From an uncultured Actinomycetota bacterium (GTDB taxonomy: Bacteria > Actinomycetota > Actinomycetes > JAHEKZ01): 64,000 bases of DNA. Shown here piece after piece: positions 2,219 through 43,119 of the stretch (positions within the stretch are counted from its first letter, which is position 1; each line of letters begins with the position of its first letter). Location: assembly GCA_963718235.1 (NCBI GenBank), contig CAVQYR010000002.1, forward strand, positions 1 to 64,000, written 5' to 3'. The notes under the pieces are model-generated. The model did not search any database, had not been told where the DNA came from, and saw only the letters and a program-made list of their open reading frames with translations. The position numbers and the translations under genes are program-made.

Positions 2219-2662
2219 GGCCCCATCGTAGGGGTCGATTGTGACTGTGCTTCACATTCGTCCGTGGCTCGGGTCCACCCCGAATTCTCGACTTGATCGC
2301 CATTGATGCGGGCCGCGCGCTCATTCGGCACTGTGCGAAGAGAATTTGCTGCATGGCGTGTCCCCCTCTGGCGTCCACCCAAGGCTTGCGTCACCGGGCT
2401 CCATGGCCGCGGCACGCGCCTTGAGTTCCGGTCATGCTTCGGGTCGGCGCAGCTATGTAGTCCGGCGTTCTCCTCACCAATTCCCGAGCCGAAGAGTCAG
2501 GGAGACGATGGCTGTGAGCACGGACCGGCCGTGGGCCGCGTAGGCAGGGGATTGGTAACCACCTACGCCAGCCGCCTACTGAACGGCATCCAGCACCTTA
2601 GTCTGACAGTAGTTCAGCGCTCATGGTTCCGCGACGGCTTCACGGAGGAGTTACCTACGCCG

Positions 2663-3932: not shown

Positions 3933-4016
3933 CCTGGCGGCAGCGACGTGTTGGTCGTTTCGGCGCTGTCCTGGCAGAGAATGCCGCGCCGAGCTTGTCG
4001 GTCGCCCACCCGCACA

Positions 4017-4857
4017 ATGGTGAGGAGCGGTGGATCGAGAACTCCGGGCAAGCGGGTAGTCGCAACTGGAGCGGTTCGGGCGCTCGAGAAAGTCGTTGGT
4101 CGACGTAACGTGATCCGCGTTGCTCGCTTTATCGGCAATCAAGCGAGGCTCGATGGACCGAACGATCTCGCATCGAATGGTGAACGTATCGTCCAGTCGA
4201 TCGTCGCCAGTCAGCCGAACTCCGTGGTATTCGACGTGGGTGCGCATTTCGGCGAGTGGTCACAGTCGCTGCTTGATCTGGGCAGGGTCTCAGAGTTGTA
4301 CTGCTTCGAGCCATCGAACTACAGCATTAGGCGGCTAAGGAACGCAATCGGGGACCGGCGTGGAGTCACAACAGAACAACTAGCACTTTCAGATCATGAG
4401 GGCACAGCCGCTCTCCACATAGTCCAGAGGGCGCCGGGGTCCAACTCACTCGTGGACTTCACTGACCCCTCGCGCGCTCAAGCCGTGGAAGAAGTGCAGT
4501 TGACGACTGTGGCTGCGTATTGCCGGCTACATGGCATTTCGCGGCTCTCGTCTGAAGATCGATGCTGAAGGTCATGACCTCCGGGTGCTTCGCGGTGCTG
4601 AACCAATGTTGCGTGCCGGCGCGATTGACCTCGTGCAGTTTGAGTACAACTGGCGGTGGATCGAGGCGCGAAGCTTCCTGCGCGATGTGTTCCAGTTGGT
4701 ACTGCCCCTCGGCTACAGCCTCGGCAAGGTCACGGGCCGCGGCATCGAGTGCTACGAGGCGTGGCATCCAGAGTTCGAGACCTTCAAGGAAGGGAACTAC
4801 CTTCTCTTTCGTGAGCCGTTGCCTGCTTCTCTGCCACGGGTAACGTGGTGGGTGTAG
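4017..4857 (+). CDS. FkbM-family methyltransferase (one frameshift near 4550)
   Basis: VFDVGAHFGEWS, CFEPS, LKIDAEGHDLRVLRGA, VQFEY. Confidence 0.85.
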
Positions 4858-5022
4858 CGCCGTGGGCGGGTGGAAGATCTATCGTGTTCGTCCGCTCACG
4901 CCGGCGCTCAGTCCGTGACTCGGCCGCCGGGGTTGGGCTTCCATGATTTCGGCTAGGCTTCAGGGTCTCAAGATCTCGCGTGTCCTAGGCTGACGACGAC
5001 GTGATGATGAAGGGACGCCGTA

Positions 5023-6010
5023 ATGAGAGTCGGGGTCGTGGGACCGGTTGCACCCGACGACTTCGCGGAGAACGTTCTGGACTGTCTTCCAGATCTTGGT
5101 GTCGATGTTCACGCCCTTGGACCCGCTCAGCGCCGACTTGCGGGTCGGGTCGGAGCAGCCTTGGGCTCACCCTGCGGGCGTCGGCGTCGGCTCGACACCC
5201 GGCTCCAGCAGTCACTAGTGAAGGACGTTGAGCGTCAAGCCCTCGACTTGGTGATCTCGGTCGACGAGGCGTTGCGCCCTGAGACGGTTGCCGCCATGCG
5301 CGCCCGCGGCGTGAAGGTGGTGCTCTGGTACCCCGACGCTGTTGCGAACTTTGGCCGGCAGCTCCTCCTGCTCGCCCCATATGACCGCATATACATCAAG
5401 GAGCCAGCAGTGGTGCCTCGGCTCACTGACCTGCTGGGGCTGCCTGTCTCCTATCTGCCTGAGGCGTGCAACCCGCGATGGCATCGTCCGGTTGGAGATC
5501 CGGGAACGAGACCCTATGTCGTCGTGGCCGGCAACATGTATCCCTCGCGCGTCATCCTGTGAACCGACTGGTGGCGGACGGCGTGCCCTTGAAGCTGTAT
5601 GGAGGTGCGGTTGCGCCGTGGATTGGTGATCAGCCTTCCCTTCGGTCTCACACTGGCACGTACATTGCGCGGGAGGACAAGGCCCGCCATTTCCGTGAAG
5701 CGGTGGCGGTGCTCAACAACCTTCACCCAGCCGAGTTCGACGGAGTGAACTGTCGTCTCTTCGAGGCTGCTGGTTCCGGCGCTGCAGTGCTGGCCGAGTA
5801 TCGACCTGTCATCCCCGACCTCTTCGAGCGCAGAGAATGACCTCTTCACCTTCCGTCGTTACGATGAGCTTCTCGCGCATATTCACACCCTGTTTGATGA
5901 CCCTTCACTCGGCACAAGGCGGGGAAATCTCGCTTCTGAGCGTGCTCGTGAGGGAGGCACACATGCCAACACCGCCTCCGGGGCAGATTCTGGAAGATGT
6001 TGTGGCGTGA
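5023..6010 (+). CDS. CgeB-like glycosyltransferase (Glyco_trans_1_2), frameshifted
   Basis: LWYPDAV, YLPEACNPRWH, VLNNLHPAEFDGVNCRLFEAAGSGA. Confidence 0.75.
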
Positions 6011-6015
6011 GCTCG

Positions 6016-7209
6016 ATGAGGGTGGCGTTGGTGACGCATGGTCTTGAGTCCGGCGGCGGTGTCCCGAAGATCGCCGAGTGGCTCGCGAATGGCCTTGCCG
6101 CACGTGGTCTGGAGATCGACGTTCACGACCTCGCAACGTCGCAGGACGACGAGTGCAGCCGACGGATTCTGAGCCCACGTTCGTGGCGAGCAGGCGTTCG
6201 TGACGTGTGGGTTACTCCGGCGGAGCGCGCAACCACACTCATTGGGGTGCAGAGATGGTCGAGTTCGAGCCGCTGCGCTATGCCCCACGCGATCGGCTGA
6301 CGAGATCACTCGAGTACAGCGACCTTGTCCAGGTCGTGGCGGGGGCGCCATGCTGGGCGAACGTCGTAGGCCAAGTGCGACGTCCCCGAGTCCTTCAAGT
6401 GGCGACCACCACGCGATGGGAGCGGGCCTCCCGGTTGTCGAGGTATGTCCTTCCCGAGGCGGCTTCTCACACAAGCGCTCGCGGGGAAGATTCAGCGTCT
6501 CGACGAGGCTGGAGTTCGTGCGGTGGACCATGTGGTCGTTGAGAACGAGCTCATGCGTCAGTGGGTTGTACAGCAGAATCAAGGTGCTGTGTCACTGATT
6601 CCCCCGGGGATTGACACATCTGAGTTCCGTCCCTCCGGACCTTGGAATCCCCAAGGGCCAATCGTTGCGGTGGGTCGCCTCGGCGAAGCCAGAAAGGGTT
6701 GGTCTCGGCTCTTCCACTCATACGGGGAGTTGATCGCACGTAGACCTGATGCTCCGAGTCTGATACTCGCTGGGCGGGGTGACCTATCCTCAGCTGATCA
6801 GGCGTCACTCCATTCCGCGCGTATCCAGGACCGCGTAGACGTCAGGCGCGACCTCACCTCTGATGAGTTGATTGCCCTTTTACAGCAGGCGTCGGTCTTC
6901 ATCCAGACGTCCTACGAGGAGGGGTTGGGGCTGGCGGGCCTGGAAGCGATGGCTTGTGGAGTGCCCATGGTTGCGACTAGCACAGCTGGGACCCGCGAGT
7001 ACCTGAGGAGTGGGGTCAACGGAGTCCTCGTTGCCCGAGACGACCGATTGGTTCAGGCCATGTCAGAAGCCGTCGAGGCTGTTCTAACAGGCGCCGGCGG
7101 CGACATGGCAGCTGCCGCCAGATCAACCGTCGAAGAGGTGTATTCGAGCGGCCGCTGTCTGTCGGGGTTTGTCTCGATCTATCAGGGTCTCGTGCCGTCC
7201 GCTGACTAG
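6016..7209 (+). CDS. GT4 glycosyltransferase (frameshifted)
   Basis: MRVALVTHGLESGGGV; EEGLGLAGLEAMACGVPMVAT (EX7E motif). Confidence 0.85.
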
Positions 7210-7240
7210 CGAATGCGTCGCCCGCGGCACCGAACGAACG

Positions 7241-8537
7241 CTAGAGGCGCTCCACGGTAGGCCCGGTTAGATGCCCTCTGGCATCGAACACGCGACGTGC
7301 GCGCTCGCTGAGGAGGTCGACATCCAGCGACGAGTGCATCTGAAGCAGCACGCAAACATCCGCCTTGTCTGCGGCCAGGGCAAGATCGTCTGTCCGTTCG
7401 GCGAAACCCGCCGACCAGTCAGCAACATGTGGGTCGAAGACAGAGACCACCGCACCCAACTTGGTGAGCCGGTCAGCGATCTCGCGCGAGGGGGATTCTC
7501 TGGCGTCACGCACGTTGGGCTTGTAGGCGACTCCGACGAGCAACACGTGCGCACCCCTCAAGGCGAGTCCATCGCTGTTCGAGTTGATTCTGGACACGAT
7601 GGACAACGTACTGAGGCATCGAGGCGTTGATCTCCTCAGCGAGCTCGACGAAGCGAAAGGACGATCCGAGCATTGACCGCACGCGGGACGCGAGGTAGTT
7701 GGGGTCGATAGGGATGCAATGACCCCCGACACCAGGGCCGGGGTAGAAGGCCTGGAAGCCAAACGGCTTGGTGGCCGCGCATCGGATGACATCCCAGATG
7801 TCGATGTCCATCTCGTGGGCGAAGCGAGCCAACTCGTTGACGAGAGCAATGTTCACGTGTCGGTAGGTGTTCTCCAGGAGCTTGGCCATTTCGGCCTCGC
7901 GGGGCCCCTTGGCGATGACGAACTCGTCGATGAACCGCCGATACATGGAGACGGCCTGCTCAGTACACGCGGGAGTGATGCCGCCGACGATTTTGGGTGT
8001 GTTGCGGATCCCGTAGACGGCATTGCCTGGGTCCACGCGCTCCGGTGAGAACGCGAGGAAGAAGTCGACCCCCACCCGCCTTCCGCCAATGGCAGCTCGG
8101 GTAGGACGACTTCTTCAGTGGTACCCGGGTATGTGGTGGACTCCAGGACCACCAGGGTGCCTGGAGACATCCGGGGCGAGATTTCCGCAATGGCAGCCCG
8201 GATCGCCCTAAGATCTGGCGCACGGTCCTTGGTGAGTGGCGTAGGGACGCAGATGGCGATGGCTGGGCCACGGCTGACGACTGCCGGGTCGCTCGACGGG
8301 GTGAATCCCCACGCCAACATCTCGTCGATATCGGCGTTGGTGAGGTCGTCGATGTGAGAACGGCCTTCGCGTAGCGAGTCGGCCAAGGCTTGGGAGTTGT
8401 CGTATCCAGCGACAGAGAGTCCCGCCGAGGCGGCGAGCGCCAGCGAGTGGGAGGCCCACGTACCCCAGCCCCAAGACCAACAAGTCAAAGTCGGGCGTCT
8501 CAGCACTGGGGGCGGCGTCGGAGGGAGTGTCGGTCAC
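7241..8537 (-). CDS. Nucleotide-sugar 6-dehydrogenase (UDP-GlcNAc/ManNAc type), frameshifted
   Basis: GLGYVGLP, ICVPTPL, ESTTYPGTTEE, FSPERVDPGN, KLLENTYRHVNIA, catalytic GGHCIPIDP, GVAYKPNVRDARESP. Confidence 0.92.
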
Positions 8538-8597
8538 CTCTCTACGCTATCTCTGAGGGAAGGACTTCAGTGCCCGTGACAGTGGAAGGAGTACCGC

Positions 8598-9752
8598 GTG
8601 GCCCGAGTACTCGTGCTTGCGGACCACTATCCCCGGGTACCGAGCGGGTGGAGCCGATCCGAAGTGTCGCCCGGATTGTTGAGGACGAGAGCCGCAGTCA
8701 CGACGTGTGGGTGGTCACCCGCGATCATGATCTGGGCTCTCCGGAACGCTACGAGATCGCCACCGCCACCTGGGTGCCAATCCATGGGGCTCAGGTCCTC
8801 TACGTCGATCTCGGCTCGCTGCGCGGTATGGCTGGCGCTCTGCGCCACATTCGCCGAGTCCGGCCGGATCTCGTGTACGTCAACAGTTTGTGGTCCCCCT
8901 TCTTCGCACTTCTCCCGATTGTGGCCTGCCGCACCGTGGCTCCACGCCCTCCCGTTCTGTTGGCTCCGCGGGGTTCATGCGGGCCTGAAGCGTTGGAAAT
9001 CAAGGTCAGGAAGAAGGCCCTCGTAGGCGTCCCGCTGCGTCAATGGCTTCGTTCGAGCAGACTCATATGGCATACGACGTCTGCAGAGGAGACGTCCGAT
9101 GTGGCCCAGTGGCTAGGACGACCGCCTAGACGAATCGTGACACGAGCAGATCCAGGAACGCCGCCTGCCTCAGAGGCGTCGCCCCCGGTCGATGGGTCCC
9201 TCCGATTGTGGGTGTCTTCGCATCGCCCCTGTCAAGGATGTAAATCGATTCCTGCGGATTCTGGCTGGGCTAATGGTCGAGGTGGATGCTCGCTACTACG
9301 GACCGGTCGAGGACGAGAAGTACATGGAGTCCTGTGGAGCAACTCATGAGTGGGCTGCCGTCCAATGTGAGGTTCAGTTTCGAAGGTGAGGTTGGCCCTG
9401 ACGATGTGGCAGCAGTTTTCAAACGGGCCGACGTGTTCCTCTTTCCGACCAAAGGAGAGAACTCGGACATGTCATCGCGGAGTCGCTGGCGGAGGGTTGC
9501 CCGGTGATGACGACACCAACAACCGTGTGGACGAATCTCCTGCGACACGGTGCAGGCTACGTCTTCAATGACGACGCCGAGGCTGTGGCGTGGCTGGAAC
9601 GCCTGGCTGGCGAGACGCGCTTGCAGCGTCAGGCTGGTCGTACTCGTGCCCATCAGCTGTACCGCGATTGGCGCAAGACTTCTGTGACGAATGGTTCGTT
9701 GTTCTCAGCGGCGTTGCGTTTGGTGACGCCGCCGGATGGAGGCGGGAGTTGA
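8598..9752 (+). CDS. GT4 glycosyltransferase (frameshifted)
   Basis: ARVLVLADHYP, RPDLVYVNSLWS, RIAPVK, ADVFLFPTKGEN. Confidence 0.75.
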
Positions 9753-9884
9753 CCTTGTTCAGGATGGCTTCGAGGGAGTCACCGCCGGTGCGACGTACGC
9801 TCGCATGCACTGTCAGCGTACCAGGGGGACAAGTGCGGCTCGAAGGTCCGACAATTGGAGTGCACCCACGGCGAATGGAGAATC

Positions 9885-10908
9885 GTGACGAAGAAGGCAC
9901 TGCTCACCGGGATCACCGGTCAGGACGGCTCATACCTTGCTGAGCTGCTGCTCTCCAAGGGCTATGAGGTCCATGGCCTGATTCGCCGAGCCTCGACGTT
10001 CAACACCGAGCGGATCGACCACCTGTACCTGGACCCGCACAATCCCAGAGGCCCGGCTCTTCCTGCACTACGGAGACCTCGCCGACGGCTCGGGCCTGGT
10101 GCGGCTGCTGCACCAGATCAACCCCGACGAGGTCTACCACCTCGGAGCGCAGTCCCACGTCCGCGTCTCCTTCGACATGCCCGAGTACACCGGTGACATC
10201 ACCGGCCTGGGCACGATTCGCCTGCTCGAGGCGCTGCGCGACGCCGAGCTGACTCCGCGCTTCTACCAGGCGTCGTCGTCGGAGATGTTCGGAGCGACCC
10301 CGCCACCGCAGAACGAGGACACCCCGTTCTGGCCCCGCTCCCCCTACGGTGCCGCCAAGGTCTACGGCTACTGGATCACCCGCAACTACCGCGAGGCCTA
10401 CGGGATGTTCGCCGTCAACGGCATCCTGTTCAACCACGAGTCGCCCCGCCGCGGTGAGACCTTCGTGACCCGCAAGATCACCCGCGCCGTCGCCAGGATC
10501 GCCGCCGGCCTGCAGTCGGAGATCTACCTGGGCAACCTCGACGCCGTCCGCGACTGGGGCTACGCCCCCGAGTACGTCGAGGCGATGTGGCGCATGCTGC
10601 AGGCCGACACCCCCACCGACTACGTGGTCGCCACCGGTACCGCCCACTCGGTGCGCGACTTCGTGCAGTTCGCCTTCGAGCGGGCCGGCCTGGAGTGGGA
10701 GAAGTACGTCAAGTTCGACGAGCGCTACCTGCGACCCACCGAGGTCGACGCCCTGATCGGCGACGCCAGCCGGGCCAAGGAGGTGCTGGGCTGGGAGGCC
10801 TCGGTGCACACCCCCGAGCTGGCCGCGATCATGGTCGACGCCGACCGCCAGCAGCTGGACGACGAGCTGTCCGGCCAGGTCGCCCACCGCACCCGCCAGA
10901 CCCCCTGA
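9885..10908 (+). CDS. gmd: GDP-mannose 4,6-dehydratase (one frameshift near 10045)
   Basis: [71 protein letters not shown]. Confidence 0.96.
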
Positions 10909-32966: not shown

Positions 32967-33398
32967 TCACTCGGCGGTCGACGCCCGGAAGGGCCAACGC
33001 GCGGCCACGCCACCCGCGATCTCCAGCACTGCCGCGAAGTCGCCGGACGCGGCGAGCACGAGTCCGTCGACGCGGGCGGCGAACGGGATCACCGACTCGT
33101 CGCCCAGGCGTCCGTTGCCACCGCGCCCGACCTCCATCTGTCCGTCGATGCGCGGACCGACCGCTCCGCCGTCGGCGTCCTCGAACCGAATCGTGAAGTC
33201 GAACGAACGGCCATGGGCGGAGAAGGGGACGTCGAAGACCGCCACGACGGACAGGTGATGCACCGAGGGGAACTCCGCTGCGACCATCTGGTTCCAGAAC
33301 GCACCGGAGGTGTACACCTTCCCGTTCTCCACGGCGGCGTAGTCGGCGAGGAAGAAGGCAACCGGGCGCGGCATGGGCTCGAGCGGATGCGATGTCAT
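32967..33398 (-). CDS. Conserved hypothetical protein (DUF6941-like)
   Basis: FLADYAAVENGKVYTSGAFW...FEDADG pattern. Confidence 0.65.
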   Translation of the reverse strand: MTSHPLEPMPRPVAFFLADYAAVENGKVYTSGAFWNQMVAAEFPSVHHLSVVAVFDVPFSAHGRSFDFTIRFEDADGGAVGPRIDGQMEVGRGGNGRLGDESVIPFAARVDGLVLAASGDFAAVLEIAGGVAARWPFRASTAE

Positions 33399-33430
33399 GC
33401 GTCTCAGTATCCGGGTGTCACACTCCTTCG

Positions 33431-34376
33431 GTGTCTCACCGCCGCAACGCTGTCGCCACCGCGGTGGTCGTGGTGCTTGCGATCGCGACGCTGGTGACCA
33501 CCGTCGTCGCGCTGCGCGCCCGTACGACGACGCCGGCGGGCGGTTCGCCGGCTGCCAGCTCGACGTCGGGTGAGGTGTCGCCGTCGTCGACCGTGAAGCC
33601 CTCACCGACGGTCGACGGCTCTCGGCCCAGCCAGCTGGTCGAGCCCCCGTTGGTGATGGCGAGCAAGGTGGAGGGCTATCGGGCCGAACCGGGCAGCTGC
33701 CTCGGCGGAGGTGCGGTCTTCCGGACCGACGACCAAGGACGGTCGTGGCGGCCGCTCAGTCTCGACGTGTCGTCGGTGCTGGCGCTGTCGTCGCCCGGTG
33801 CGCGCTCGGTCGAGGCAGTCGTGACGACGAGCGACGCGTGCGACGCGGTTGGTGTCGAGTCGTCCGATGCCGGGCGGACCTGGGCCGAGGCGGCCGACAC
33901 GTCGTGGCACCGGTTCGGCGACGACGTCGGGCTCCTTCACTCACCGGCGGGCTCGGTCCGCAACCCGTGCCCGGACCGGTCGTTGCCGGTCGTCGAGCTG
34001 CAGGGGCTGTCGACCACGGAAGCGGCCGTGCTGTGCCCTGACGGTGAGGTGCTGCGCACGGTCGACGGGCGCCGCTTCAGTCAGCAGTCGAAGGTGCCGG
34101 ACGCGATGGCGTTGGCGTTCGAGAGCCGCGACCTGGGATGGCTTCTCGTGCGCGACGGCGAGCAGTGTCCGGCGTACGTGCTGAACCGCAGTCAGGACGG
34201 CGGCGTCACGTGGGCGCAGGGGGGCTGCGTGGGGTCGGCTGAACGCGTTGGCGTCGGCGTCGCCACCTGCGCTCGCCTTCAGCGACGCGCAGCACGGCCT
34301 GGCGACGATCGGTGACGTCGCGTACGGCACGGCCGATGGTGGGTTCACCTGGCAGCAGGCCATCACACGTCGATGA
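33431..34376 (+). CDS. Membrane-anchored BNR/Asp-box repeat protein (frameshift near 34260)
   Basis: N-terminal TM and S/T/P linker; Asp-boxes [32 protein letters not shown]. Confidence 0.75.
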
Positions 34377-34803
34377 TGACGGTGCGCGGGCCGTCGTTGA
34401 CGAGGCTCACGTGCATGTCCGCGCCGAACTCGCCGGTCTGAACCGAGGCGCCGCGTCGGCGCAGGGCTGCGCAGAACTCCTCGACGAGCGGCTGGCTGAT
34501 GTCTCGTGGTGCTGCCGCTGACCATGACGGACGCCGCCCCTTGGACAGGTCCGCGTACAGGGTGAACTGACTCACCACGAGCAGCGGGGCGCCGAGGTCG
34601 GCGGCCGAGCGCTCGTCGTCCATGATCCGCAGGTGCCAGACCTTCTCGGCGAGCCGCTCGGCGTGGTCGGTGCGGTCGTCGTGAGTGACGCCCACGAGCA
34701 CCACGAGCCCGGGTGCCTCGATCTCACCGACCCGGTCACGCACACCGTCGGGCCGTAGGACGTCGACCGCCGCGCTCGTGACCACCTGCACCACCGCTCG
34801 CAC
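34363..34803 (-). CDS. dtd: D-aminoacyl-tRNA deacylase
   Basis: [33 protein letters not shown]. Confidence 0.96.
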
Positions 34804-34817
34804 GCGAGCACGCTACC

Positions 34818-34868
34818 CATCTCGTGGTCGTCTGTCCGCGCTGGGCGCGGCTCGACGACCACGAGATG
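34818..34868. repeat. 51-bp palindromic REP-like element, copy D (best-paired)
   Basis: CATCTCGTGGTCGTC-TGT-CCGCGC-TGG-GCGCGG-CTC-GACGACCACGAGATG. Confidence 0.8.
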
Positions 34869-34921
34869 ACACCTGTGGACGACGTGCGCGGACCTGGCCC
34901 CGTACCGGGCACGCTGCGCCG

Positions 34922-35803
34922 ATGCGACTCACCTCGGTGGCCCTGCGGCAGGGCGGGGTCTTCACCCGGGCTCAGGCCCGGGAATGCGGTTGGTCCGACG
35001 ACGCGATCGACCGCCGTCTGCGGTGCGGTGAGTGGGTTCGGTCGCTGCCGTCGGGGCGGGGGGTGTTCCAGCACGCGTCGATCGGTAGGACGTACGAGTC
35101 GATCCGGTGGGCCGCCGTGCTCGGCGTCGGTCCGCCGTGCGCGCTCGGGCTCGAGTCGGCCGCTGCTGAGTGGGGCTGGTGCGGCGAACCAGGGATGGTG
35201 AGCGTGGTCGTCGGCCTGAACCGCAAGCCGAGATCGGTGGCTCCGGTGTCGGTGAAGCGGCTTGCGCTTGCTGACGGAGCCGTCGTCCGGCTTCGTGGGC
35301 TGCCAGTCACGTCGAAGGCGCGCACCGTCGCCGACTGCCTGCGGTTTCTCCCCCAGCCGATGGCGCAGCAGATCCTCGACCGCAGCCAGCAACGCGGTGG
35401 ACCGGCTCCGGCCGCGGTGCTGCTGCAGCTGCCTCGCGGTGGGTCCGGCGTGTGCCAGGCGAGGCGGTTGCTTCGGGCGGCCGACGGTTCGGTGTTCGCC
35501 GCCGAGCGACTGTGTGTGGCGTTGCTCCGCCAAGGTGGGGTCGAGGGCTGGCGGGCCAACCTGGCCGTGGACATTCGTGGGCGACGGATCGTGATCGACG
35601 TCGCCTTCGTGGCGGCTCGACTGGCGTTGGAGATCGACGGGTGGGCGCATCACCAGGACGTCGAGCGGTTCCAGTCCGACCGGCGGCGCCAGAACCTGCT
35701 CATCAGCGACGGCTGGCGGGTGCTGCGGTTCACCTACGCCGACCTGACCACGCGACCCGACGACGTGCTGCGGCAGGTGCGCGAGGCGCTGGCCGCCACC
35801 TGA
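34922..35803 (+). CDS. AbiEi-like wHTH plus DUF559 (Vsr-like) nuclease-domain protein
   Basis: RQGGVFTRAQARECG, VTSKARTVADC, IDVAF...LALEIDGWAHH...DRRRQNLLISDGWRVLRFT. Confidence 0.88.
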   Translation: MRLTSVALRQGGVFTRAQARECGWSDDAIDRRLRCGEWVRSLPSGRGVFQHASIGRTYESIRWAAVLGVGPPCALGLESAAAEWGWCGEPGMVSVVVGLNRKPRSVAPVSVKRLALADGAVVRLRGLPVTSKARTVADCLRFLPQPMAQQILDRSQQRGGPAPAAVLLQLPRGGSGVCQARRLLRAADGSVFAAERLCVALLRQGGVEGWRANLAVDIRGRRIVIDVAFVAARLALEIDGWAHHQDVERFQSDRRRQNLLISDGWRVLRFTYADLTTRPDDVLRQVREALAAT

Positions 35804-35847
35804 TGGTCGCCCTGCCGCGCTGAGCGCGGAAATCCGGCCACGAGATG
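35797..35847. repeat. 51-bp REP-like element, copy E (contains the DUF559 gene stop codon)
   Basis: CACCTGATGGTCGCCCTG-CCGCGCTGAGCGCGG-AAATCCGGCCACGAGATG; aligns without gaps to copy D. Confidence 0.78.
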
Positions 35848-35850
35848 AGA

Positions 35851-38800
35851 TCAGCGGCCGAAGAGGCCCTTCTTCTTCTTCTCCGGCTTGCCCGACCCCT
35901 TGCTCGACGGCTTGGCCGGTCGCGGGCTGGCGGGGGCTGGCGTGGCAGGGGTCGTGGTGTCGTCGTTGAAGCCGCCAAGGCTGGACAGCTCGCGGAGCAG
36001 GGCCGCGGTGTCGACACCACCGGCCTCGCGCCAGGGTGCGTCGGCGGTCGGGCCGTCATCCTCCTCGGCCTGACGAGCGGCTTCCTCGGCGGCGAGCTGC
36101 TCGGCGGCGACCCGGGCGGCCTCCTCCTCGGCAGCCACTCGCTGGGCCTCCTCGACCGCAAGTCGGGCGGCCTCCTCCTCAGCCGCGACCCGCGAGGCCT
36201 CCTGCTCGACCGCCAGCATCGCGGCCGCTTCGCGGGCGGCGTCGTCGGCCGCCTGACGCTCGGCCGTCAGTCGGTCGGCCTCGCGTTCGGCGTCGAGCCG
36301 GGCCGCCCGTTCGGCGGCGGCCCGCTTGGTCTCGGCCTTGGCCGCGTCGGCTGCGGCGCGCTTGTCCGCGGCCAGACGCTCGGCCTCGGCCTCGGCGGCA
36401 GCAGCGGCCCGCTCGGCCTCCTGCTCGGCAGCAAGCCGGGCGGCCTCCTCGGCGGCAAGGCGTTCGGCTTCGAGCCGGGCGGCTTCCTCGGCTGCTGCCT
36501 GCTCGGCGGCGATCCGGGCTTCCTCGGCCAGGCGCTCGGCCTCCAGGCGGGCAGCCTCCTCAGCGGCGAGGCGTTCGGTTTCGAGCCGGGCGGCTTCCTC
36601 GGCCGAGGCGTGCGGCTCTGCTCGGCGGCGATCCGGGCTTCCTCGGCCAGGCGTGCGGCCTCTGCCTCGGCGGCGATCCGGGCTTCCTCGGCCAGGCGCT
36701 CGGCCTCCAGGCGGGCAGCCTCCTCAGCGGCGAGGCGTTCGGCTTCGAGCCGGGCAGCCTCCTCGGCGGCGAGGCGTTCGGCTTCGAGCCGGGCAGCTTC
36801 CTCGGCGGCGAGGCGTTCGGCTTCGAGCCGGGCGGCTTCCTCAGCGGCGAGGCGTTCGGCTTCGAGCCGGGCAGCTTCCTCGGCGGCGAGGCGTTCGGCT
36901 TCGGCCGGGCAGCTTCCTCGCGGCCAGGCGGGCAGCTTCCTCGGCGGCGAGGCGTTCGGCTTCGAGTCGGGCGGCTTCCTCGGCGGCGAGGCGTTCGGCT
37001 TCGAGTCGGGCGGCTTCCTCGGTGGCGAGGCGCTCCGCCTCGAGCCGGGCCTCCTCGACCAGTCGGGCGGCCTCGGCCTCGGCGGCGAGCCGAGCCTCCT
37101 CGGCCTGACGCTTGGCGGCCTGGATCTCGGCGTCTGCCTGCTTCTGACGCCGACGGCGGCGCTCCTCCTCGACCTTGGCCAGGCGCTCGAGCTCGAGCCG
37201 CTCCTCCTCGAGCTTGCGCAGGCGCTCCTCCTCGGCGCGACGCTTCTTGGCCAACGCCTCAGCGGTGCGCTTGGCCTCGGCCTCCGCCTCGGCCGCCTTG
37301 CGTGCGGCCTCGGCGGCCTCGCGCTTGGCCTCCTCCTCCAGGGCCAGCCGCTGCGCCTCGAGCTCGGCCAACCGGGCTTCCTCGGCGCGTCGTTGCTCCT
37401 GCAGCTCCTCAGCAGCTCGTTGGGCCTTGGCCGCGGCCTCCGCGGCCTTGCGTGCGGCCTCGGCCTCGAGCTCGGCGGCCCGGCGAGCGGCAGCCTCCTC
37501 GCGCGCCCGTGCCTCGGCCTCCATCTCCTCGGCCCGGCGGGCGGCAGCCTCCTCGAGCGCGCGGGCCTCGGCCTCCATCTCGGCGGCCCGGCGCGCGGCA
37601 GTCTCCTCCAGCGCACGGGTCCGGGCCTCGGCCAGGAACACCGAGTGGGCGGCCCACGCCTCACGCTCGACCCGACGTCGTTCGGTGGCCAGCCACGTCG
37701 TGTGGTCGGCCCACGCCTCCGCCTCCATGGCGCCGCGCTGCCAGACCAGGAAGGCCTCGTGGTCGGCCCAGGCCGCACCTTCGGCGGCGATCCGCTCGGC
37801 CTCCAGCACCTCGCGGTGAACCGTCCACGCCTCGGCCTCGACGGCCAGGCGTTCGGCCTCCAGGACGGCGGTATGCGCTGTCCAGGCCTCGCTCTCGACC
37901 CGAGCGCGTTCGAGACCGAGCCACGCGAAGTGGTCGGCCCACGCGTCGAACTCAGCAGCGCAGCGCTGACCGGCCAGCCACGCCTCGTGCTCGGCCCAGG
38001 CCTCGTGCTCGGCCCCGGTCCGCTCGGCCTCCAGACGCTCGCGCTCAGCGCGCACGCTGCTGTCGAGCCAGGCGCGGTGGTCGGTCCAGGCGGCACCTTC
38101 GGCGGCGACCCGCTCGGCCTCCAGCCAGGTGACATGGGCGACCCACGCCTCGATCTCCTGGCGCCGTCGCTCCCCCTCCAGCCACGCCGCATGGTCGGCC
38201 CACGCGGCCGGTTCGTCGGCCACCCGCTTGGCCGCCAGACGCTCGCGCTCGGCCCGGATCGTGGTGTCGCACCAGGCTTCGTGGTCGGCCCAGGCCAGAG
38301 GCTCGCACCGACGTCGCTCGTTCTCCAGCCACTGGTAGTGCACCAACCAGGCCTCGGCCTCGGCCTGTCCTCGCTGCTCGGCGAGCCACGCGTCGTGCGC
38401 GGCCCAGGCCTGCGACTCGACACCCTCGCGCTGCTCGGCCAGCCAGGTCTCGTGGGACAGCCACGCCTCGGCCTCGGCGGAAACCCGCTCCTCGGCCTCG
38501 CGCAGCACGGCTTCCGCCGCGGCCCGCTCGGCCTGGGCTGCAGCCGCCTCTTGCGCCTCTTGCCGCTCGGCCTCGGCTGCCCAGTCGTCGTCCTCGTTCT
38601 CGACGACGTTGGGTGCGTTGACCGGTGTGAACAGGTCCTTCAGCGCAGCGGTGACCTTCTTGACCGACGCTGCCAGCTCGTCGCCCGCAGGGTCCGGCGC
38701 GGCGTCGAACAGTGACTTCTTGCCACGTGCCGCCTCCAAGGAGGTGACCGATGCAACCGGCTCGTCGTCGGGCAGCTCGACGTCGACGAGCCCGGCGTCC

Positions 38801-39477
38801 ATGAGCGCCTTGATGACGTGGCCGGCCTCGAAGACGGTGAAGCCGCACTCGCCGGCGAGGTCGGCGATGTCACGCTCGCCGTCGACCTTGCACAACAGGG
38901 CCCAGTCAGCACTGGACAAGACGATGTCGGCCGCGCCCTCGGGGCGGGCGGAGAGCAGGGGCACACCGCGCTCGCCGCCGATCGACATGAGCAGCTCTTC
39001 CCAGCGGTGGCGTCGAGCCTCGACCTCGGCGAGCAGCTCACGGACGGCCATGGGCGGTGCGACGTCCTGACGGTTCTTCTTGTTCTTGCGGAACTTGTGT
39101 GCCGCGACCGGCCAGCCGAGCAAGTCGCTGAGGGAGTCCTTGAGCTGCTCGACGACGAAGGCCTCGACGACGGAGCGCTCGACGTAGCCGAGGTGGACCA
39201 GCAGCTCACCCAGCCGCCACCCCTGGAGCTCGTTGCGCTGGACGTCGAGGGCGTCGGTGAGCGCCTCGGGTGACAGCTCGCCGGAGGCGATCAGCCGCGC
39301 CCCCAGCTGGGGGCGGCGTCCCGGGACGAAGATCGAGTAGATCAGCCCGTCCTTGAGGTAGACCTCGGCCTGCTCCCCTGCCGGGTCGGTGACGGTGAGG
39401 CAGCCGGTGGCGAGGGCGTCGCCGAGCTCGGCCAGAACAGGTTCGACGGCGGAGGCGTGGACCTGCGTCTGGGTCAC
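35851..39477 (-). CDS. Giant (~1200 aa) DUF4388/MshEN-like protein with Trp-His repeats and long Ala/Glu/Arg helical rod (compensating frameshifts within repeats)
   Basis: ORFs 36841..39525, 36267..38423 (part) and 35851..36219; first and last ORF share a frame; ATGCLTV...VYLKDGLI N-terminus; GGAGGG RBS before GTG 39477. Confidence 0.82.
36430..37060 (-). repeat. 39-bp coding tandem repeat ([13 protein letters not shown])n
   Basis: TCCTC recurs at 36721, 36760, 36799, 36838, 36877; degenerate copies on both sides. Confidence 0.9.
37612..38475 (-). repeat. 14 x 19-aa ExxAWxxHxx(W)LxxER protein repeat
   Basis: 288 codons = 14x19 plus two 11-aa inserts; E, A, W and H invariant in the translation. 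Confidence 0.9.
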
Positions 39478-39543
39478 GGGCCCCTCCCTCCGCCAGCCGA
39501 CACCGTCCGGGGGCGTCGGCCGCACCCCGGTTGCCCTCTCTCC

Positions 39544-39570
39544 TTCGGCAGGTTGGGGGCTGTCGTTGAG
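39544..39570 (-). promoter_or_regulatory. Putative sigma28 (WhiG/FliA)-type promoter of the giant gene
   Basis: Minus strand CTCA-ACGACAGCCCCCAACCT(17 nt)-GCCGAA, ending 67 nt upstream of the GTG. Confidence 0.6.
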
Positions 39571-39638
39571 CGTGGAAGCACCGGTTCGCCACCCGGTTGG
39601 CGGTCCGGGACGGGGGGAGGCATGGCACGATGCCTCCC

Positions 39639-40526
39639 ATGTCAGGCCCGGTCAGCCCCACCACGGTTCCCACGGTCGCGCCCACGGCCGCGACGATGAT
39701 CACGGTCGCGCCCACGGGCGCGGAGAGCAGCAAGGACGACGTCCCGGCCCTGCCGGTGACCCTCGAGGAGCTCGTCGCCACGGCCAAGGAGTGCGAGGCA
39801 GCCGGCGCCGCGATGATCCACGTGCACATCCGCGACGCCAAGGCCCAGCCCACGCTCGACCTCAAGCGGCTCAAGGCCACGGTGAAGGCCCTGCGGGAGC
39901 AGACCTCCCTCGTCGTCCAGCTGTCGACCGGGGGGTCGGTCAAGGACGGCTACCAGGCGCGGCTGAAGGTCCTGGACGCCGCACCCGACTCGTGCTCGCT
40001 CACCTGCGGCACGGTGAACTTCGGCGACGACGTCTTCATGAACCCTTGGCCGTTCATGGTCGAGCTGTACGCCGAGACCCAGCGACGCGAGATCGTCCCG
40101 GAGTTCGAGCTGTTCGACCTCGGACACGTCGCGTCGTTGAACCGGCTGCTCGACACCTACGGCGCGCCGTACGGCGGCCAGGTGCACTGCGACCTCGTGA
40201 TGGGCGTGCCCGGGGGCATGCCGGGTACGACGGAGGCGCTCGTCGCGGCAGTGGCCGCGCTGCCCGAGGGGGCGTCCTGGTCGGCCACCGGGGTGGGTCG
40301 CTCGTCGCTGACGGTGATGTTCGCCGCCCTGTCGGCCGGGGGCCACCTGCGCGTGGGCATGGAGGACGTGCTCACCTACAGTCGCCGGGTGCCGGTGCGT
40401 GACAATGCTCAGCTGGTGGCGCGAGCCGCCGAGGCAGCCACGTTGTTCCAGCGGCCGCCGATGTCGCCCGATCAGGCTCGCGCCATGCTTCACGTACGTC
40501 CGCCCGCCTCAGGAGGCACCGCATGA
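39639..40526 (+). CDS. Beta-keto acid cleavage enzyme (BKACE/Kce, DUF849) family
   Basis: ITVAPTGA, GAAMIHVHIRD, QLSTGG, PEFELFDLGH, GGHLRVGMED. Confidence 0.92.
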   Translation: MSGPVSPTTVPTVAPTAATMITVAPTGAESSKDDVPALPVTLEELVATAKECEAAGAAMIHVHIRDAKAQPTLDLKRLKATVKALREQTSLVVQLSTGGSVKDGYQARLKVLDAAPDSCSLTCGTVNFGDDVFMNPWPFMVELYAETQRREIVPEFELFDLGHVASLNRLLDTYGAPYGGQVHCDLVMGVPGGMPGTTEALVAAVAALPEGASWSATGVGRSSLTVMFAALSAGGHLRVGMEDVLTYSRRVPVRDNAQLVARAAEAATLFQRPPMSPDQARAMLHVRPPASGGTA

Positions 40527-41101
40527 CCGAGTCGTCGACCGTCGATGCCAGCGTCGGCCCCAAGTCGGGCGGGCGCCGTCGGATCGACCGCGTGCTGTCC
40601 GACGACTTCCTCGACGGCCTGGTCGACCTCTCGTTGGCCGACCTGCGGGCCCGGCGGGCCGAGGCCGAGCAGGAGGAGGCCGACCTGTCCTACGTGCGGC
40701 GGCTGCTCCAGGGGCGGATGGACATCGTGCGCGCCGAGCTCGGACGTCGGTCGGGGGGCTCGACCGAGGGCTCGCTGGTCGACCAGCTGGCGGCGATCCT
40801 GTCCGACGGTCCGTCGGCGCCACCGCACGGCATGGGTCGCCACGTGACCGTGGAGCCGTCGCGGGTCGACGAGCACCGGCGCGCCGTCGAGCAGCTGATC
40901 GCCGACGTCGGGGTCAGCGACGTCGTGTCCCTCGACGAGAGCTCCTTGGCCGGGGCGCTGACCCGGCTGTCGGAGTACGAGCGTGCCGTGTCGCGCAACC
41001 GTCGGCGGGTGCAGGACGCCATGGACTCGTGCACCGCGGAGATCGCCCGGCGCTACAAGTCCGGCGAGGCCAGCGTCGACGACCTCCTCGCCGGCCGCTG
41101 A
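40523..41101 (+). CDS. rsiG: RsiG/AmfC-like c-di-GMP-binding anti-sigma factor
   Basis: Two E-X3-S-X2-R-X3-Q-X3-D motifs: EADLSYVRRLLQGRMD (40676-40723) and ERAVSRNRRRVQDAMD (40979-41026); dtd/asparaginase neighbourhood. Confidence 0.88.
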   Translation: MTESSTVDASVGPKSGGRRRIDRVLSDDFLDGLVDLSLADLRARRAEAEQEEADLSYVRRLLQGRMDIVRAELGRRSGGSTEGSLVDQLAAILSDGPSAPPHGMGRHVTVEPSRVDEHRRAVEQLIADVGVSDVVSLDESSLAGALTRLSEYERAVSRNRRRVQDAMDSCTAEIARRYKSGEASVDDLLAGR

Positions 41102-41115
41102 CGCCCCCACCCCAA

Positions 41116-41201
41116 GTTGATCTTGGACTTGATGTGACAGTTCGACCCCTCCGGCCGTCATCTTCTCCATGATCAACAGATGATCATCAGATGATCAACA
41201 G
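41116..41201. repeat. Imperfect inverted repeat followed by 3 x 11-bp tandem
   Basis: GTTGATCTTGGA...TCCATGATCAAC, then ATGATCAACAG/ATGATCATCAG/ATGATCAACAG. Confidence 0.65.
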
Positions 41202-41253
41202 GGAGAAGGACGGCGAGCGGGCAGGGGCAGCGGCGGAAGCGACGGACGCGCGG

Positions 41254-42204
41254 GTGCGGGGGTACGCCGCGCACCGGGTCGTCGCCGTCGTGGAGCGGTC
41301 CGGACTCGTCGAGGGTGTGCACTGCGGCACGGTGGTCGCCCTGGACGGCGCCGGCCGCGTGGTCCACGCCGTCGGTGACCCCGACCTGGAGGTCTACCCG
41401 CGGTCGGCCGCCAAGCCGATGCAGGCCTCGGGCATGGTGCGGCTCGGGCTCGAGCTCCCGGACGACGAGCTGGCGCTGGTCGGGGCCTCGCACAGCGGCG
41501 AGCCGATGCACGTCGACGGCGTCCGTCGGATCCTGGCCAGAGCCGGGCTCGACGAGTCGGCGCTGCAGAACACCCCGCGCCTCCCCCTGCACGAGCCCAG
41601 CCGCGACGCCGAGATCAAGGCCGGCCGCGGCGAGACTTCGGTGTGCGCCGACTGCTCGGGCAAGCACGCCGGCATGGTCGTGACGTGTGTCCTCAACGGC
41701 TGGGCCGTCGCCACGTACCTGGACGACGACCATCCGCTGCAGCGGGCCCTGCGCGCCGAGCTCGAGCTCGTTGCCGGCGAACCCGTCGTCCACAGCGGCG
41801 TCGACGGGTGCGGGGCGCCGATCTGGGCGATCACGCTGACCGGCCTGGCCCGGGCCTTCGCCGGGTGCGTGACCGCCGCCGAGGGATCGCCGCCGCGGAG
41901 GGTGGCCGACGCCATGCGCCGCCACCCGGAGATGGTGGGCGGTACCGGTCGAGACGTCACCGGGTTCATGACCGCCGTCCCCGGTCTGCTGGCCAAGGAG
42001 GGCGCCGAGGCGATCTACGCCGCCGCCCTCCCCGACGGCTCAGCAGTGGCCCTGAAGATCTCCGACGGAGCGTTCCGTGCGGCGCAGGTAGCGCTGGCCA
42101 GTGCCTTGGCAGCGGTCGGTGTCGACCCGGAGCGGCTCGCGCCCTGGGCGAGCGTTCCGGTGCTCGGGCACGGGCGGCCCGTGGGGTCGGTGCACGCGCC
42201 CTAA
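41254..42204 (+). CDS. L-asparaginase II (Rhizobium-type) family
   Basis: RSGLVEGVH, PRSAAKPMQA, SHSGE, CSGKHAGM, DGCGAP, KEGAE, KISDG; start uncertain. Confidence 0.9.
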   Translation: MRGYAAHRVVAVVERSGLVEGVHCGTVVALDGAGRVVHAVGDPDLEVYPRSAAKPMQASGMVRLGLELPDDELALVGASHSGEPMHVDGVRRILARAGLDESALQNTPRLPLHEPSRDAEIKAGRGETSVCADCSGKHAGMVVTCVLNGWAVATYLDDDHPLQRALRAELELVAGEPVVHSGVDGCGAPIWAITLTGLARAFAGCVTAAEGSPPRRVADAMRRHPEMVGGTGRDVTGFMTAVPGLLAKEGAEAIYAAALPDGSAVALKISDGAFRAAQVALASALAAVGVDPERLAPWASVPVLGHGRPVGSVHAP

Positions 42205-42221
42205 GCCGGCTAGCCAACAGC

Positions 42222-42670
42222 CTAGCCGCGCAGCAGGTACCGGGTGCCGGCTCCATCACCGGTGCGTCGGCGAGCACGGTGTAGTGCTCCCAGCCGACGC
42301 CGTCGGGGTCGGTCGACCACACCTTGTCCTGGACGGCGTAGCAGCAGGCGACCTCCGACTCCACCGAGCCGACCAGCCCCTCGTCGGCCAGCCGGGTCGT
42401 GGCGGCGGTGACGTCGTCGGTGGTGGCGACCTCCACGCCGAGGTGGTTCAGGGTGCCCGCGTTCGCCGGCGACTCGATGAGCACGAGCTTCAGGGGCGGG
42501 CTGTCGATCGCGAAGTTGGCGTAGCCGGGGCGCCGCTTGGCCGGCTCGGCGGCGAACAGACGGCTGTAGAAGGCGACCGCGGCGTCGACGTCGCTGACGT
42601 TGAGGGCCAGCTGGACTCGGGGCAGGGCCGGGGCGGCGACCGTGGGCTGGGAGAGGGACGTGGTGGACAT
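42222..42670 (-). CDS. arsI: ArsI/CadI family VOC protein (C-As lyase-like); stop probably lost through a 1-nt indel
   Basis: VQLALNVSD, KRRPGYANF, LNHLGVEV, CCYAVQDKVW, WEHYTV. Confidence 0.88.
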
Positions 42671-42771
42671 GCGGGTACCTCCTGGGCAGTAATTCGACAG
42701 TCGTCAATATAGGCGAAGATTTCGACATCTGTCAATGGATTGTTCGACAGGTATCGAATAGGCTCGTGCCC

Positions 42772-43119
42772 ATGACCCGAACCGCGATCCCGCTGCCACT
42801 GGTCGACGCCGACTGCTGCGCCCCCCTCGGCGAGAGCGCGCTGGACGCCGACACGGCCGAGATGCTGGCCCACGCCTTCAAGGCGCTGTCCGACCCGGTG
42901 CGGCTGCGGCTGTTGAGCATCATCGCTGCCGCGCCGTCCGGGGAGGTCTGCGCCTGCGACCTGGCCGCCCCGGTCGGCAAGAGCCAGCCGACCGTCTCCC
43001 ACCACCTGAAGGTGCTGCGCGAGGCCGGCCTGGTCACGAGCACCAAGCGCGGTACCTGGGTCCACTACGCGGCAGTTCCGCATCGGCTCGAGGCGCTGCG
43101 CGGCGTCCTCGGCGCGTGA
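42772..43119 (+). CDS. arsR: ArsR/SmtB metalloregulator
   Basis: DCC, FKALSDPVRLRLL, EVCACDL, SQPTVSHHLKVLREAGL. Confidence 0.93.
   Translation: MTRTAIPLPLVDADCCAPLGESALDADTAEMLAHAFKALSDPVRLRLLSIIAAAPSGEVCACDLAAPVGKSQPTVSHHLKVLREAGLVTSTKRGTWVHYAAVPHRLEALRGVLGA

Follow-up and report, generated by a model that had tools for sequence, protein, structure and literature searches.

To our knowledge, RsiG and WhiG are the only sigma/anti-sigma pair under the direct control of the messenger cyclic di-guanosine monophosphate (c-di-GMP), and outside Streptomyces and Rubrobacter the only WhiG targets that we know of are motif predictions. RsiG binds WhiG only together with a dimer of c-di-GMP, so that WhiG targets are off when c-di-GMP is high, and this sequestering of WhiG by RsiG-(c-di-GMP)2 is established for Streptomyces and Rubrobacter (main texts of PMC12871210 and PMC8325347). 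Here we describe a locus in which rsiG stands head-to-head with a long gene that appears to be a target of this same switch. It lies in the first 64,000 nucleotides (nt), called the window below, of contig CAVQYR010000002.1 (GenBank assembly GCA_963718235.1) from an uncultured Actinomycetota bacterium; the genome, of 3.17 Mb in two contigs, has 70% G+C and a completeness of 95%, and the window opens its contig 2. The long gene, hereafter the big gene, encodes a DUF4388 (PATAN) head, a helical rod of very variable length and a short conserved tail.

Two families of protein domains are relevant to that head. The MshEN domain is defined by two 24-residue motifs with a five-residue joiner, the key positions being R, L, G, L17, L21 and Q24 (PMC5013675). 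Solved binders depart from the definition to some extent: the GSPII-B domain of Thermus thermophilus PilF binds c-di-GMP at 6 nM with K167 and L196 replacing Arg residues, and GSPII-C of the same protein, with P335 at the Arg position, binds it about as well as MshE does (PMC11731258). In cyanobacterial regulators PATAN is the output domain; its binding partners are PilB1 and PilC, and it is found at the membrane (bioRxiv 10.1101/2021.06.11.447907). In the parts of the PATAN literature available to us, no report was found of c-di-GMP binding by its helical insert, and in Supplementary Table 4 of Wang et al. 2016 DUF4388 occurs only in the MshEN-HD-GYP-REC-DUF4388 architecture of Myxococcus, the PATAN-insert architecture being absent.

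We read the locus as a conserved head-to-head module in which rsiG, usually together with a BKACE gene, faces a WhiG-dependent gene for a rod-like, probably c-di-GMP-binding, membrane-tethered scaffold, possibly for pili, and we give this reading a probability of about 0.6. The arrangement is widespread. A scan of 185,579 species genomes returned 242 confirmed loci, and the counts on 80 loci given below refer to the best 80 of these 242. Wherever at least 1,800 nt of upstream flank are present, rsiG diverges from the big gene (76 of 76 loci); BKACE lies between the two in 59 of them, and in the remaining 17 rsiG adjoins the big gene directly, with gaps of 190–562 nt. A second set consists of 61 genomes, the organism itself and 60 relatives, seven of which are flagged as unpublished (G025, G033, G042, G048, G050, G054 and G060). 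Among the 60, the head is found at high score in 33, RsiG (E <1e-30) in 46 and WhiG in 51, and head and rsiG share a contig, on opposite strands and diverging, in 30 of the 33, with gaps of 197–2,069 nt and one of 5,266 nt; the three exceptions lie at contig ends. Without the seven unpublished genomes the figures are 31, 39 and 44 of 53, with divergence on the same contig in 28 of 31. Many actinobacteria of soil and fresh water have retained the pairing, and the named carriers among the 242 are uncultured Actinomycetes, 'Candidatus Nanopelagicales', Sporichthyaceae, Frankiales/Frankiaceae, Acidothermaceae and Longivirga aurantiaca.

RsiG and WhiG are themselves well matched to their solved counterparts. 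RsiG scores 111.4 bits against PF22802 (cut-off 27) and aligns over residues 17–190 with the S. venezuelae RsiG chains of 6pfj/6pfv at 1.6e-37; its twin motifs, EADLSYVRRLLQGRMD (40676–40723) and ERAVSRNRRRVQDAMD (40979–41026), both fit E(X)3S(X)2R(X)3Q(X)3D, which places it in the family. Its gene overlaps the BKACE gene by ATGA, the mark of translational coupling, and the BKACE product reaches 297.8 bits with PF05853 (cut-off 24.8) and stays below all four NCBIfam equivalog and exception cut-offs, the best of these matches being 266.8 against a required 382. Across the whole genome there is a single FliA/WhiG match above the cut-off, at C2:801487–802167 (TIGR02479, 283.4 bits against 189.6), and this sigma factor matches the S. 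venezuelae WhiG chain 6pfj_A at 2.3e-109, compared with 8.8e-50 for FliA. In four genomes of the organism's own family (G001, G010, G012 and G016) WhiG is 91–98% identical, and two of these assemblies are near-complete, in 5 and 20 contigs.

The connection between this sigma factor and the big gene is made by a promoter element that, judged from its sequence and conservation, is very probably of the WhiG type. A CTCA-N17-GCCGAA element stands 67 nt upstream of the start codon GTG 39477; it can also be read as TCAA-N16-GCCGA and, in extended form, as CTCAAC-N15-TGCCGAAGG at 39570–39542 on the minus strand. It fits both queries used for the WhiG regulon, namely CTCA-N16-17-GCCGA and T(A/C)AA-N16-GCCGA, each no more than 200 bp from a start codon (Denis et al. 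2026, PMC12871210, main text). On both strands of the whole genome the first query has 168 matches and the second 69, so chance could explain a single copy but not the conservation seen in relatives. Conservation was counted on the best-80 set only, of which 79 loci have at least 330 nt upstream, over a span from −330 to +60 of the N-terminus (390 nt). The exact CTCA-N17-GCCGA occurs on the gene strand in 64 of the 79 and on the opposite strand in none, and elsewhere in the same loci the background is 13 matches in 860,644 nt, or 0.006 per 390-nt window; three further loci of the 79 have CTTA at −35. An earlier set of 19 relatives, which overlaps the 80 loci in genomes and leaves out locus L023 (genome G027), not matched by the motif expressions, has the exact motif in 16 and TGCCGA(A/T)G with CTTA or CTTG at −35 in the other three.

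The head of the protein is not a full MshEN domain: it is a PATAN domain that carries a four-helix insert of the MshEN_N type, with a winged helix behind it. PF14332 (DUF4388/PATAN) matches it with 43.8 bits when the head is taken alone and 35.9 bits in the long fragment (cut-off 25), and is present in all of the 120 homologues listed, which go by no names other than hypothetical or 'DUF4388 domain-containing'. An alignment of 18 head sequences from many families (A1) has a mean column identity of 67%. The AlphaFold2 (AF2) model built for the head, with a mean predicted local distance difference test score (pLDDT) of 84.6 and a predicted template modelling score (pTM) of 0.76, consists of a small beta part, the four-helix insert (57–119), a further strand and helix, and the winged helix (~180–235). 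Structural matches to winged helices cover residues ~160–240 at Z 6–8.9, and with the whole head Foldseek returned no match at E ≤0.001, only local ones, either to MshE or to the winged-helix portions of larger complexes.

Within the helical insert lies a tandem MshE-type signature. Its second motif is complete against RLGxx(L/V/I)(L/V/I)xxG(L/V/I)(L/V/I)xxxxLxxxLxxQ, and the first motif shows no variation in A1 at L2, G3, L6, L12, L17, L21 and Q24. Of the 80 loci, 75 retain the full tandem pattern, and all 75 of these have Q at position 24 of motif 1 and R at position 1 of motif 2. When the family profile was compared with the Protein Data Bank (PDB), PilF (6f8l, 5.8e-8), MshE (5htl, 3.4e-4) and PilB (5zfr, 5.6e-3) were the only matches at E <0.01, and the best stretch was PilF GSPII-C (302–358), aligned without a gap across the spacer. 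Foldseek places the head model on 5htl_A, which is MshE with c-di-GMP, with probability 1.00 and a root-mean-square deviation (rmsd) of 1.6 Å over 58 columns at 36% identity, the E value of 0.078 reflecting the shortness of the match; VIA-align gives Z 5.9 and 1.7 Å over 58 residues. The modelled four-helix bundle can thus be superposed on c-di-GMP-bound MshE. A second DUF4388 protein of the same genome, described below, has lost the signature, which is therefore not a generic property of PATAN domains. On balance we think that the helical insert probably keeps a two-motif MshE-type pocket and that the head would bind one c-di-GMP.

Behind the head and a short conserved stretch comes the rod, whose length and make-up differ between lineages. 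In the organism itself it opens with a series of Trp/His repeats (the W..H repeats in Table 1), for which single-sequence AF2 predicts two very long helices, 2–152 and 159–291, at a pLDDT of 81.8. These repeats occur in the organism's own family and in G024 and are absent from other lineages; they have no Pfam match, and the best ESM Atlas match, 0.84, is to unnamed clusters and lies under the useful range. In Acidothermus-like relatives the position of the rod is taken by an acidic, proline-rich stretch. The C-terminus is constant by comparison, since the complete relatives all end in a 13-residue motif, a proline-rich linker and KK(K/R)KGLFGR, and both the motif and the GLFGR tail are confined to the big gene among the open reading frames (ORFs) of its own genome. 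The tail, KKKKGLFGR here, seems to resemble the short basic-hydrophobic peptides by which proteins such as MinD are targeted to the membrane, and would fit a protein tethered there.

A possible destination for such a protein is the type IV pilus. The genome carries a pilus cluster (C1:1.932–1.950 Mb) with genes for a DUF4388 paralogue, Wzy_C, PilB, PilT, PilC, pilins, a prepilin peptidase and PilM; no flagellin was found in the genome, which holds 15 GGDEF matches and five T2SSE ATPases. The PilB of the cluster has a Pfam MshEN domain of the canonical kind, in which the spacer is 5 residues long, and the cluster is headed by the second DUF4388/PATAN protein, of 461 residues with a proline-rich tail and without the c-di-GMP signature; a paralogue of ~430 residues lies ~2 kb from pilB on the same contig in relatives such as G007, G009, G011 and G013. 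Matches to the WhiG pattern that lie intergenically upstream of genes number 24 in the genome. Three are in the pilus cluster, ahead of a pilin gene, pilM and the Wzy_C-pilB unit, and others precede GAF-GGDEF, GGDEF-EAL, MCP, REC-LuxR, SpoIID-like and SLT genes. Some of the 24 will be chance, and the sites upstream of pilus genes, of diguanylate cyclase and phosphodiesterase (DGC/PDE) genes and the like are candidates for the WhiG regulon of this organism. The prediction parallels the regulon of Rubrobacter WhiG, which has three promoters in a pilus cluster and five before DGC/PDE genes (PMC8325347, main text). Of the 33 carriers of the big gene, 31 have a PilB orthologue (identity of 66% or more), as do 12 of the 27 non-carriers (a thirteenth has one at 54% identity); since related genomes do not count as independent cases and some of the bins are incomplete, this co-occurrence is suggestive only. 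Complex prediction with the head (residues 8–238 of A1) and the N-terminal 170 residues of PilB (A2) gave 0.22 and 0.10 against a mark of 0.32 and weighs neither way.

A number of observations count against our reading. In the first motif of the insert all key positions are present except the first Arg, and its leading residue is neither R nor a member of the relaxed set R/K/P/N: among the 75 loci, 25 have Q there, 25 have M, 23 have L and 2 have A, and none has R or K. Position 24 of motif 2 is Q in 52 loci, as in the window itself, H in 22 and T in one; the spacer is 7 residues long in 75 of 75, compared with the 5 of the defined 53-residue unit; the NCBIfam model NF053729 ('c-di-GMP_motif') scores 34.1 bits where the cut-off is 38 (E 1.8e-8, model positions 1–53 of 53); and the Pfam MshEN model PF05157 finds nothing on the head even at E up to 10. 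As for the promoter, 15 of the 79 loci are without the exact motif, and twelve loci that lack it, some with short-spaced remnants, belong mostly to one subclade (L033, L037, L038, L039, L041, L043, L046, L050, L057, L058, L072 and L081), which means that WhiG control is not universal in the family. The four family members named above for their WhiG keep that gene yet show neither rsiG nor the big gene, and because the two genes adjoin, their joint loss may be one deletion and is no proof of functional coupling. In its own assembly the big gene does not form a single open frame. Finally, PilB is common in the group anyway, and the link to the pilus is by analogy.

The last of these points leaves room for a different role of the rod, in cell division, polar growth, chromosome organisation or a spore-like differentiation, as for other actinobacterial coiled-coil proteins, with WhiG acting developmentally as in Streptomyces; this we take seriously without thinking it probable. 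WhiG controls sporulation genes in Streptomyces (PMC12871210, main text), some of the candidate sites listed above precede SpoIID-like and SLT genes and a REC-LuxR gene of BldM/WhiI-like architecture, and the big gene is located outside the pilus cluster. The only experimentally known partners of PATAN domains, on the other hand, are parts of the pilus motor, PixE PATAN binding the N-terminal half of PilB1 as well as PilC's N-terminal domain (bioRxiv 10.1101/2021.06.11.447907, as far as the available text goes), and the pilus genes here share the same promoter type, just as nearly all carriers have a PilB orthologue. By analogy, then, the rod protein may be a tether between the membrane and a PATAN partner, most likely the type IV pilus motor, a suggestion for which we would put the chances a little short of even.

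Another possibility, which we consider unlikely, though not by very much, is that the scaffold is WhiG-dependent and senses no ligand at all, c-di-GMP acting only via RsiG and WhiG, while the insert is an 'alpha-clip' for protein contacts, for instance in competition with PilB. Both the PATAN insert and its likeness to the start of the ATPase N1 domain have been discussed in terms of structure and interaction (bioRxiv 10.1101/2021.06.11.447907), and MshEN homologues such as XpsE have lost binding through changes of key residues (Wang et al., PMC5013675); the sub-threshold score, the empty Pfam search, the missing Arg and the longer spacer all speak for this possibility. A clip of this kind does not readily account for the fact that L2, G3, L17, L21 and Q24 in both motifs, like R1 in motif 2, vary little or not at all across the family, and have been lost in the paralogue of the pilus cluster. 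Solved binders tolerate residues other than Arg at position 1, and the tolerance of GSPII-B for K and L indicates that the missing first Arg lowers membership of the family more than function; moreover, the best PDB match, which runs gapless across the spacer, is to GSPII-C, itself a c-di-GMP binder. A head that binds the messenger thus stays our preferred reading.

The interrupted frame raises the question of whether the gene is alive in this organism. Translation would begin at GTG 39477, with the ribosome-binding site GGAGG at 39491–39487 (minus strand), 9 nt ahead, and end at the stop codon 35853–35851; the GTG was chosen because the conserved N-terminus of the relatives begins there. Read through, the gene has 3,630 nt. 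Its main frame is open for 879 codons and then meets stops at 36843 and 36726, while translation continues in the other two minus frames until the original frame resumes. Compared with neighbouring copies of the 39-nt repeat (GAG GAA GCC GCC CGN CTC GAA GCC GAA CGC CTC GCC GCC), five single-base indels account for this, four bases missing (~36920, 36904, 36620 and 36616) and one extra (36606), with no net effect on the frame. A genuine pseudogene in a decaying module is what the two stops and five indels would suggest at face value, and the same-genus relative G001, which shows neither rsiG nor the big gene, would be in keeping with it; we nevertheless find this quite improbable. All the indels are single-base, fall within 330 nt of GC-rich repeats and cancel to restore the frame, and the C-terminal 255 codons retain the family motifs. 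Because other genes of the window are split as well (three frames share a UDP-sugar dehydrogenase, and two a Wzx-type flippase), because the conserved head is fragmented in other few-contig relatives (five pieces in G008, two in G009) and because intact relatives exist, the breaks are in all likelihood consensus sequencing errors and not decay. In 11 of the 19 fetched relatives the ORF, of 542–1,447 residues, runs without a break from N-terminus to GLFGR tail.

Public reads add little to this. In none of twenty matching runs does the share of sampled words exceed 0.25, and the matches are short-read contigs throughout, none of them RNA; in the four runs that were compared no contig spans 36600–36925 cleanly, and one contig lacks 15 nt at 36085 without loss of frame. 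Among 20 fetched loci, four break off within the gene's repeats and one just ahead of its stop (these five are L005, L008, L009, L012 and L017), and many database entries for the family are labelled 'partial'. Short-read metagenome contigs often end in the repeats of this gene, so the family is likely to be under-represented or truncated in bins and protein databases.

As to the promoter, the idea that CTCAAC-N15-TGCCGA is the site of another sigma factor or regulator governing the divergent pair can draw on a −10 block that reads GCCGAAGG or GCCGATGC here and not the full GCCGATAA, and on the need to fit a BKACE-rsiG promoter into the same compact 150-nt region, but it is highly improbable in view of two correctly spaced blocks that match both published queries exactly, a strand bias of 64 to 0, a place 55–173 nt before the coding start and the occurrence of the pattern ahead of pilus and DGC/PDE genes, which it shares with WhiG regulons that are proven. 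The 64 sites comprise 55 distinct 26-mers with the consensus gCTCAAc-N15-TGCCGAtG, in which CTCAA(C/T) and (T/G)GCCGA(A/T) are constant while spacers and flanks vary. A side observation concerns loci L050, L057 and L058, which have Gln for Gly at position 10 of motif 2 and are also without the promoter motif; the two features may have been lost together in one subclade.

The features of the locus are collected in Table 1, with genes between 34.3 and 42.2 kb called from codon-position G+C and translation. On the plus strand, a 956-residue ORF at 35845..38715 is an antisense shadow of the big gene, with a low-complexity translation rich in G, L and R. The ORF between dtd and the big gene is possibly an inserted element. 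Rfam has no match in 33000–43000 at E ≤1 and none in the whole window at the gathering score, which speaks against a riboswitch in the leader of the big gene, and a scan of 35500–41300 for sigma-70 promoters and terminators found none. Far from the locus, positions 1–10000 of the window have a G+C of 0.61–0.63, compared with ~0.70, and hold polysaccharide-synthesis genes, several of them split between frames: a UDP-glucose/GDP-mannose dehydrogenase gene (7241–8506, minus strand) is spread over three overlapping ORFs, and a Wzx-type flippase gene (2303–3932) over two frames. Either many assembly indel errors or a decaying island could explain the split genes there.

Table 1. Features at and around the rsiG/big-gene locus, in window coordinates.
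Feature	Position	Strand	Basis or remark
dtd	34363–34812	−	codon-position G+C, translation
DUF559/AbiEi-like ORF, between dtd and big gene	34685–35803	+	AbiEi_4, DUF559 and REase_MTES_1575 matches
Big gene (DUF4388-headed)	35851..39477	−	~1,210 codons on read-through
Basic-hydrophobic tail KKKKGLFGR, extreme C-terminus	35854..35880	−	same tail in the ORFs of 11 of 19 relatives that reach their end
Conserved C-terminal 13-residue motif	35974..36012	−	only such ORF in genome
Ala/Glu/Arg-rich helical repeats, 39-nt period	36220..37600	−	
Lost and regained frame	~36600–36925	−	reads on in other two minus frames; original frame then resumes to 35851
W..H repeat, 14 copies of 19 residues (EAWxxHxxWLxxER)	37603..38478	−	two 30-residue steps interrupt series
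Conserved N-terminal module, ~237 residues: PATAN beta part, four-helix insert, FRKNKKxRQDVAPP stretch, winged helix	38767..39477	−	Pfam, alignment, AF2
Tandem MshE-type c-di-GMP signature, two 24-residue motifs (39309–39238 and 39216–39145), 7-residue spacer	39145..39309	−	
Sigma-28/WhiG-type promoter (probable) CTCAACGACAGCCCCCAACCTGCCGAA	39544..39570	−	−35 CTCA(AC) 39570–39567, −10 (T)GCCGAA 39549–39544, 17-nt spacer
BKACE gene, first of divergent operon	39597/39630..40526, likely ATG 39630	+	PF05853
rsiG	40523..41101	+	PF22802
Asparaginase-II gene	41191–42204	+	codon-position G+C, translation

Much of this had been anticipated in a preliminary description of the window, made from its letters alone. 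The tandem MshEN-like motif, the CTCA-N17-GCCGAA element, the divergent BKACE-rsiG operon and both intact c-di-GMP motifs of RsiG are all present as it described them, and the sigma-28 gene and the conserved linkage in relatives that its proposal called for have been found, the former as a WhiG-type gene. Its gene of about 1,200 residues is in its place when read through, although not as one open frame, and the head that it called MshEN turns out to be PATAN/DUF4388, with an MshEN_N-type insert significantly similar to solved MshEN domains in place of a full one. The genome search that it recommended yielded one WhiG-type sigma-28 gene and the type IV pilus cluster, and no flagellin. Of its central proposal, that one messenger controls both transcription and activity of the protein, the transcription arm is strongly supported by promoter conservation, linkage and the presence of WhiG, while the activity arm rests on a sequence and fold signature that scores below the curated cut-off.

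How might such a circuit work? At high c-di-GMP, RsiG-(c-di-GMP)2 would hold WhiG and keep the big gene off. Once c-di-GMP drops, WhiG would use the CTCAAC-N15-TGCCGA promoter and the big protein would be made, together with type IV pilus components and several cyclases and phosphodiesterases whose genes have the same type of site. The PATAN head would then sense c-di-GMP directly, and the messenger would act twice, slowly via synthesis and quickly via occupancy of the head. Rod and tail would tether the head to the membrane, where it could contact the pilus motor in the way that the PATAN domains of PixE and PixG contact PilB1 and PilC. With the gene off and the head loaded under the same high c-di-GMP, the protein would report a sequence of low and then high messenger. 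Taken to its full extent, and here we are speculating beyond what we hold likely, the locus would be a previously undescribed c-di-GMP circuit, hard-wired in actinomycetes of the Acidothermus, Sporichthya and Frankia type and in their many uncultured relatives from fresh water and soil, in which rsiG is fixed beside a WhiG-dependent gene for a receptor of new architecture (PATAN with a functional MshEN_N pocket, a rod of up to ~1,200 residues and a membrane-targeting tail), a temporal coincidence detector for low-then-high messenger that places or gates the pilus motor or some other polar machine.

Whatever the fate of that extension, the locus offers a conserved and easily tested candidate WhiG target that adjoins the gene of its sensor, and cultured carriers exist in Longivirga aurantiaca CGMCC 4.7317 (locus L068) and Acidothermus-type genomes. 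The target may be a second c-di-GMP receptor, which would give a two-level circuit of synthesis and activity. Our results also suggest that the helical insert of PATAN, in which a surface for interactions has been seen so far, can form a genuine pocket for c-di-GMP, and if this is true it widens the list of effectors in a phylum with few known. RsiG-WhiG, MshEN and PATAN are each already known, and the likeness of the PATAN insert to the N-termini of secretion ATPases has been noted before (bioRxiv 10.1101/2021.06.11.447907). In literature searches, the main texts of PMC8325347 and PMC12871210 and Supplementary Table 4 of Wang et al., we found no published description of the protein family, of the fixed pairing that it forms with rsiG, of the WhiG-type promoter conserved ahead of its gene or of a complete c-di-GMP pocket in a PATAN insert; the supplementary target tables of PMC12871210 are outside this scope and may hold the family as an unnamed cluster.

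Set against the systems already described, the locus is a recombination of familiar parts. With the RsiG-WhiG switch of S. venezuelae and Rubrobacter radiotolerans (6pfj/6pfv, 7lq2–7lq4) it shares a twin-motif RsiG and WhiG, and with Rubrobacter in particular a predicted regulon that also includes type IV pilus and DGC/PDE genes; it differs in that rsiG stands head-to-head with a conserved target of apparent WhiG type, a neighbour that does not appear in the main texts of PMC8325347 and PMC12871210, and in most loci is co-transcribed with a BKACE gene. With the MshEN/MshEN_N domains of Vibrio cholerae MshE (5HTL) and of T. thermophilus PilF (GSPII-B and -C) it shares the tandem 24-residue motifs, the four-helix bundle and the key Leu, Gly and Gln residues, whereas here the unit is inserted in a PATAN domain and not placed at the N-terminus of a secretion ATPase, comes without MshEN_C, has a 7-residue spacer and Q, M, L or A at position 1 of motif 1, and scores below the curated cut-offs. 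The cyanobacterial PATAN regulators PatA, PixE, PixG and LsiR have the same two-hairpin helical insert, in proteins of ~400 residues with a PATAN-REC order; the family described here has no receiver and carries a rod of 300–1,200 residues and a C-terminal tail instead.

In overall shape, the nearest comparison is with the Myxococcus proteins FrzS and AglZ, in which a receiver-like head is joined to a long coiled coil and which act as scaffolds for type IV pilus polarity and motility. These and cyanobacterial HmpF likewise put a small signalling head on a long helical rod, with a different head domain and no sequence relation to the big protein. The insert has its own precedent in Bdellovibrio Bd2402 (REC-MshEN_N-other domain; Wang et al. 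2016), another MshEN_N-only module outside a secretion ATPase and one that binds c-di-GMP; the flanking domains and the phylum differ, and the rod and tail, which Bd2402 does not have, set the actinobacterial protein apart.

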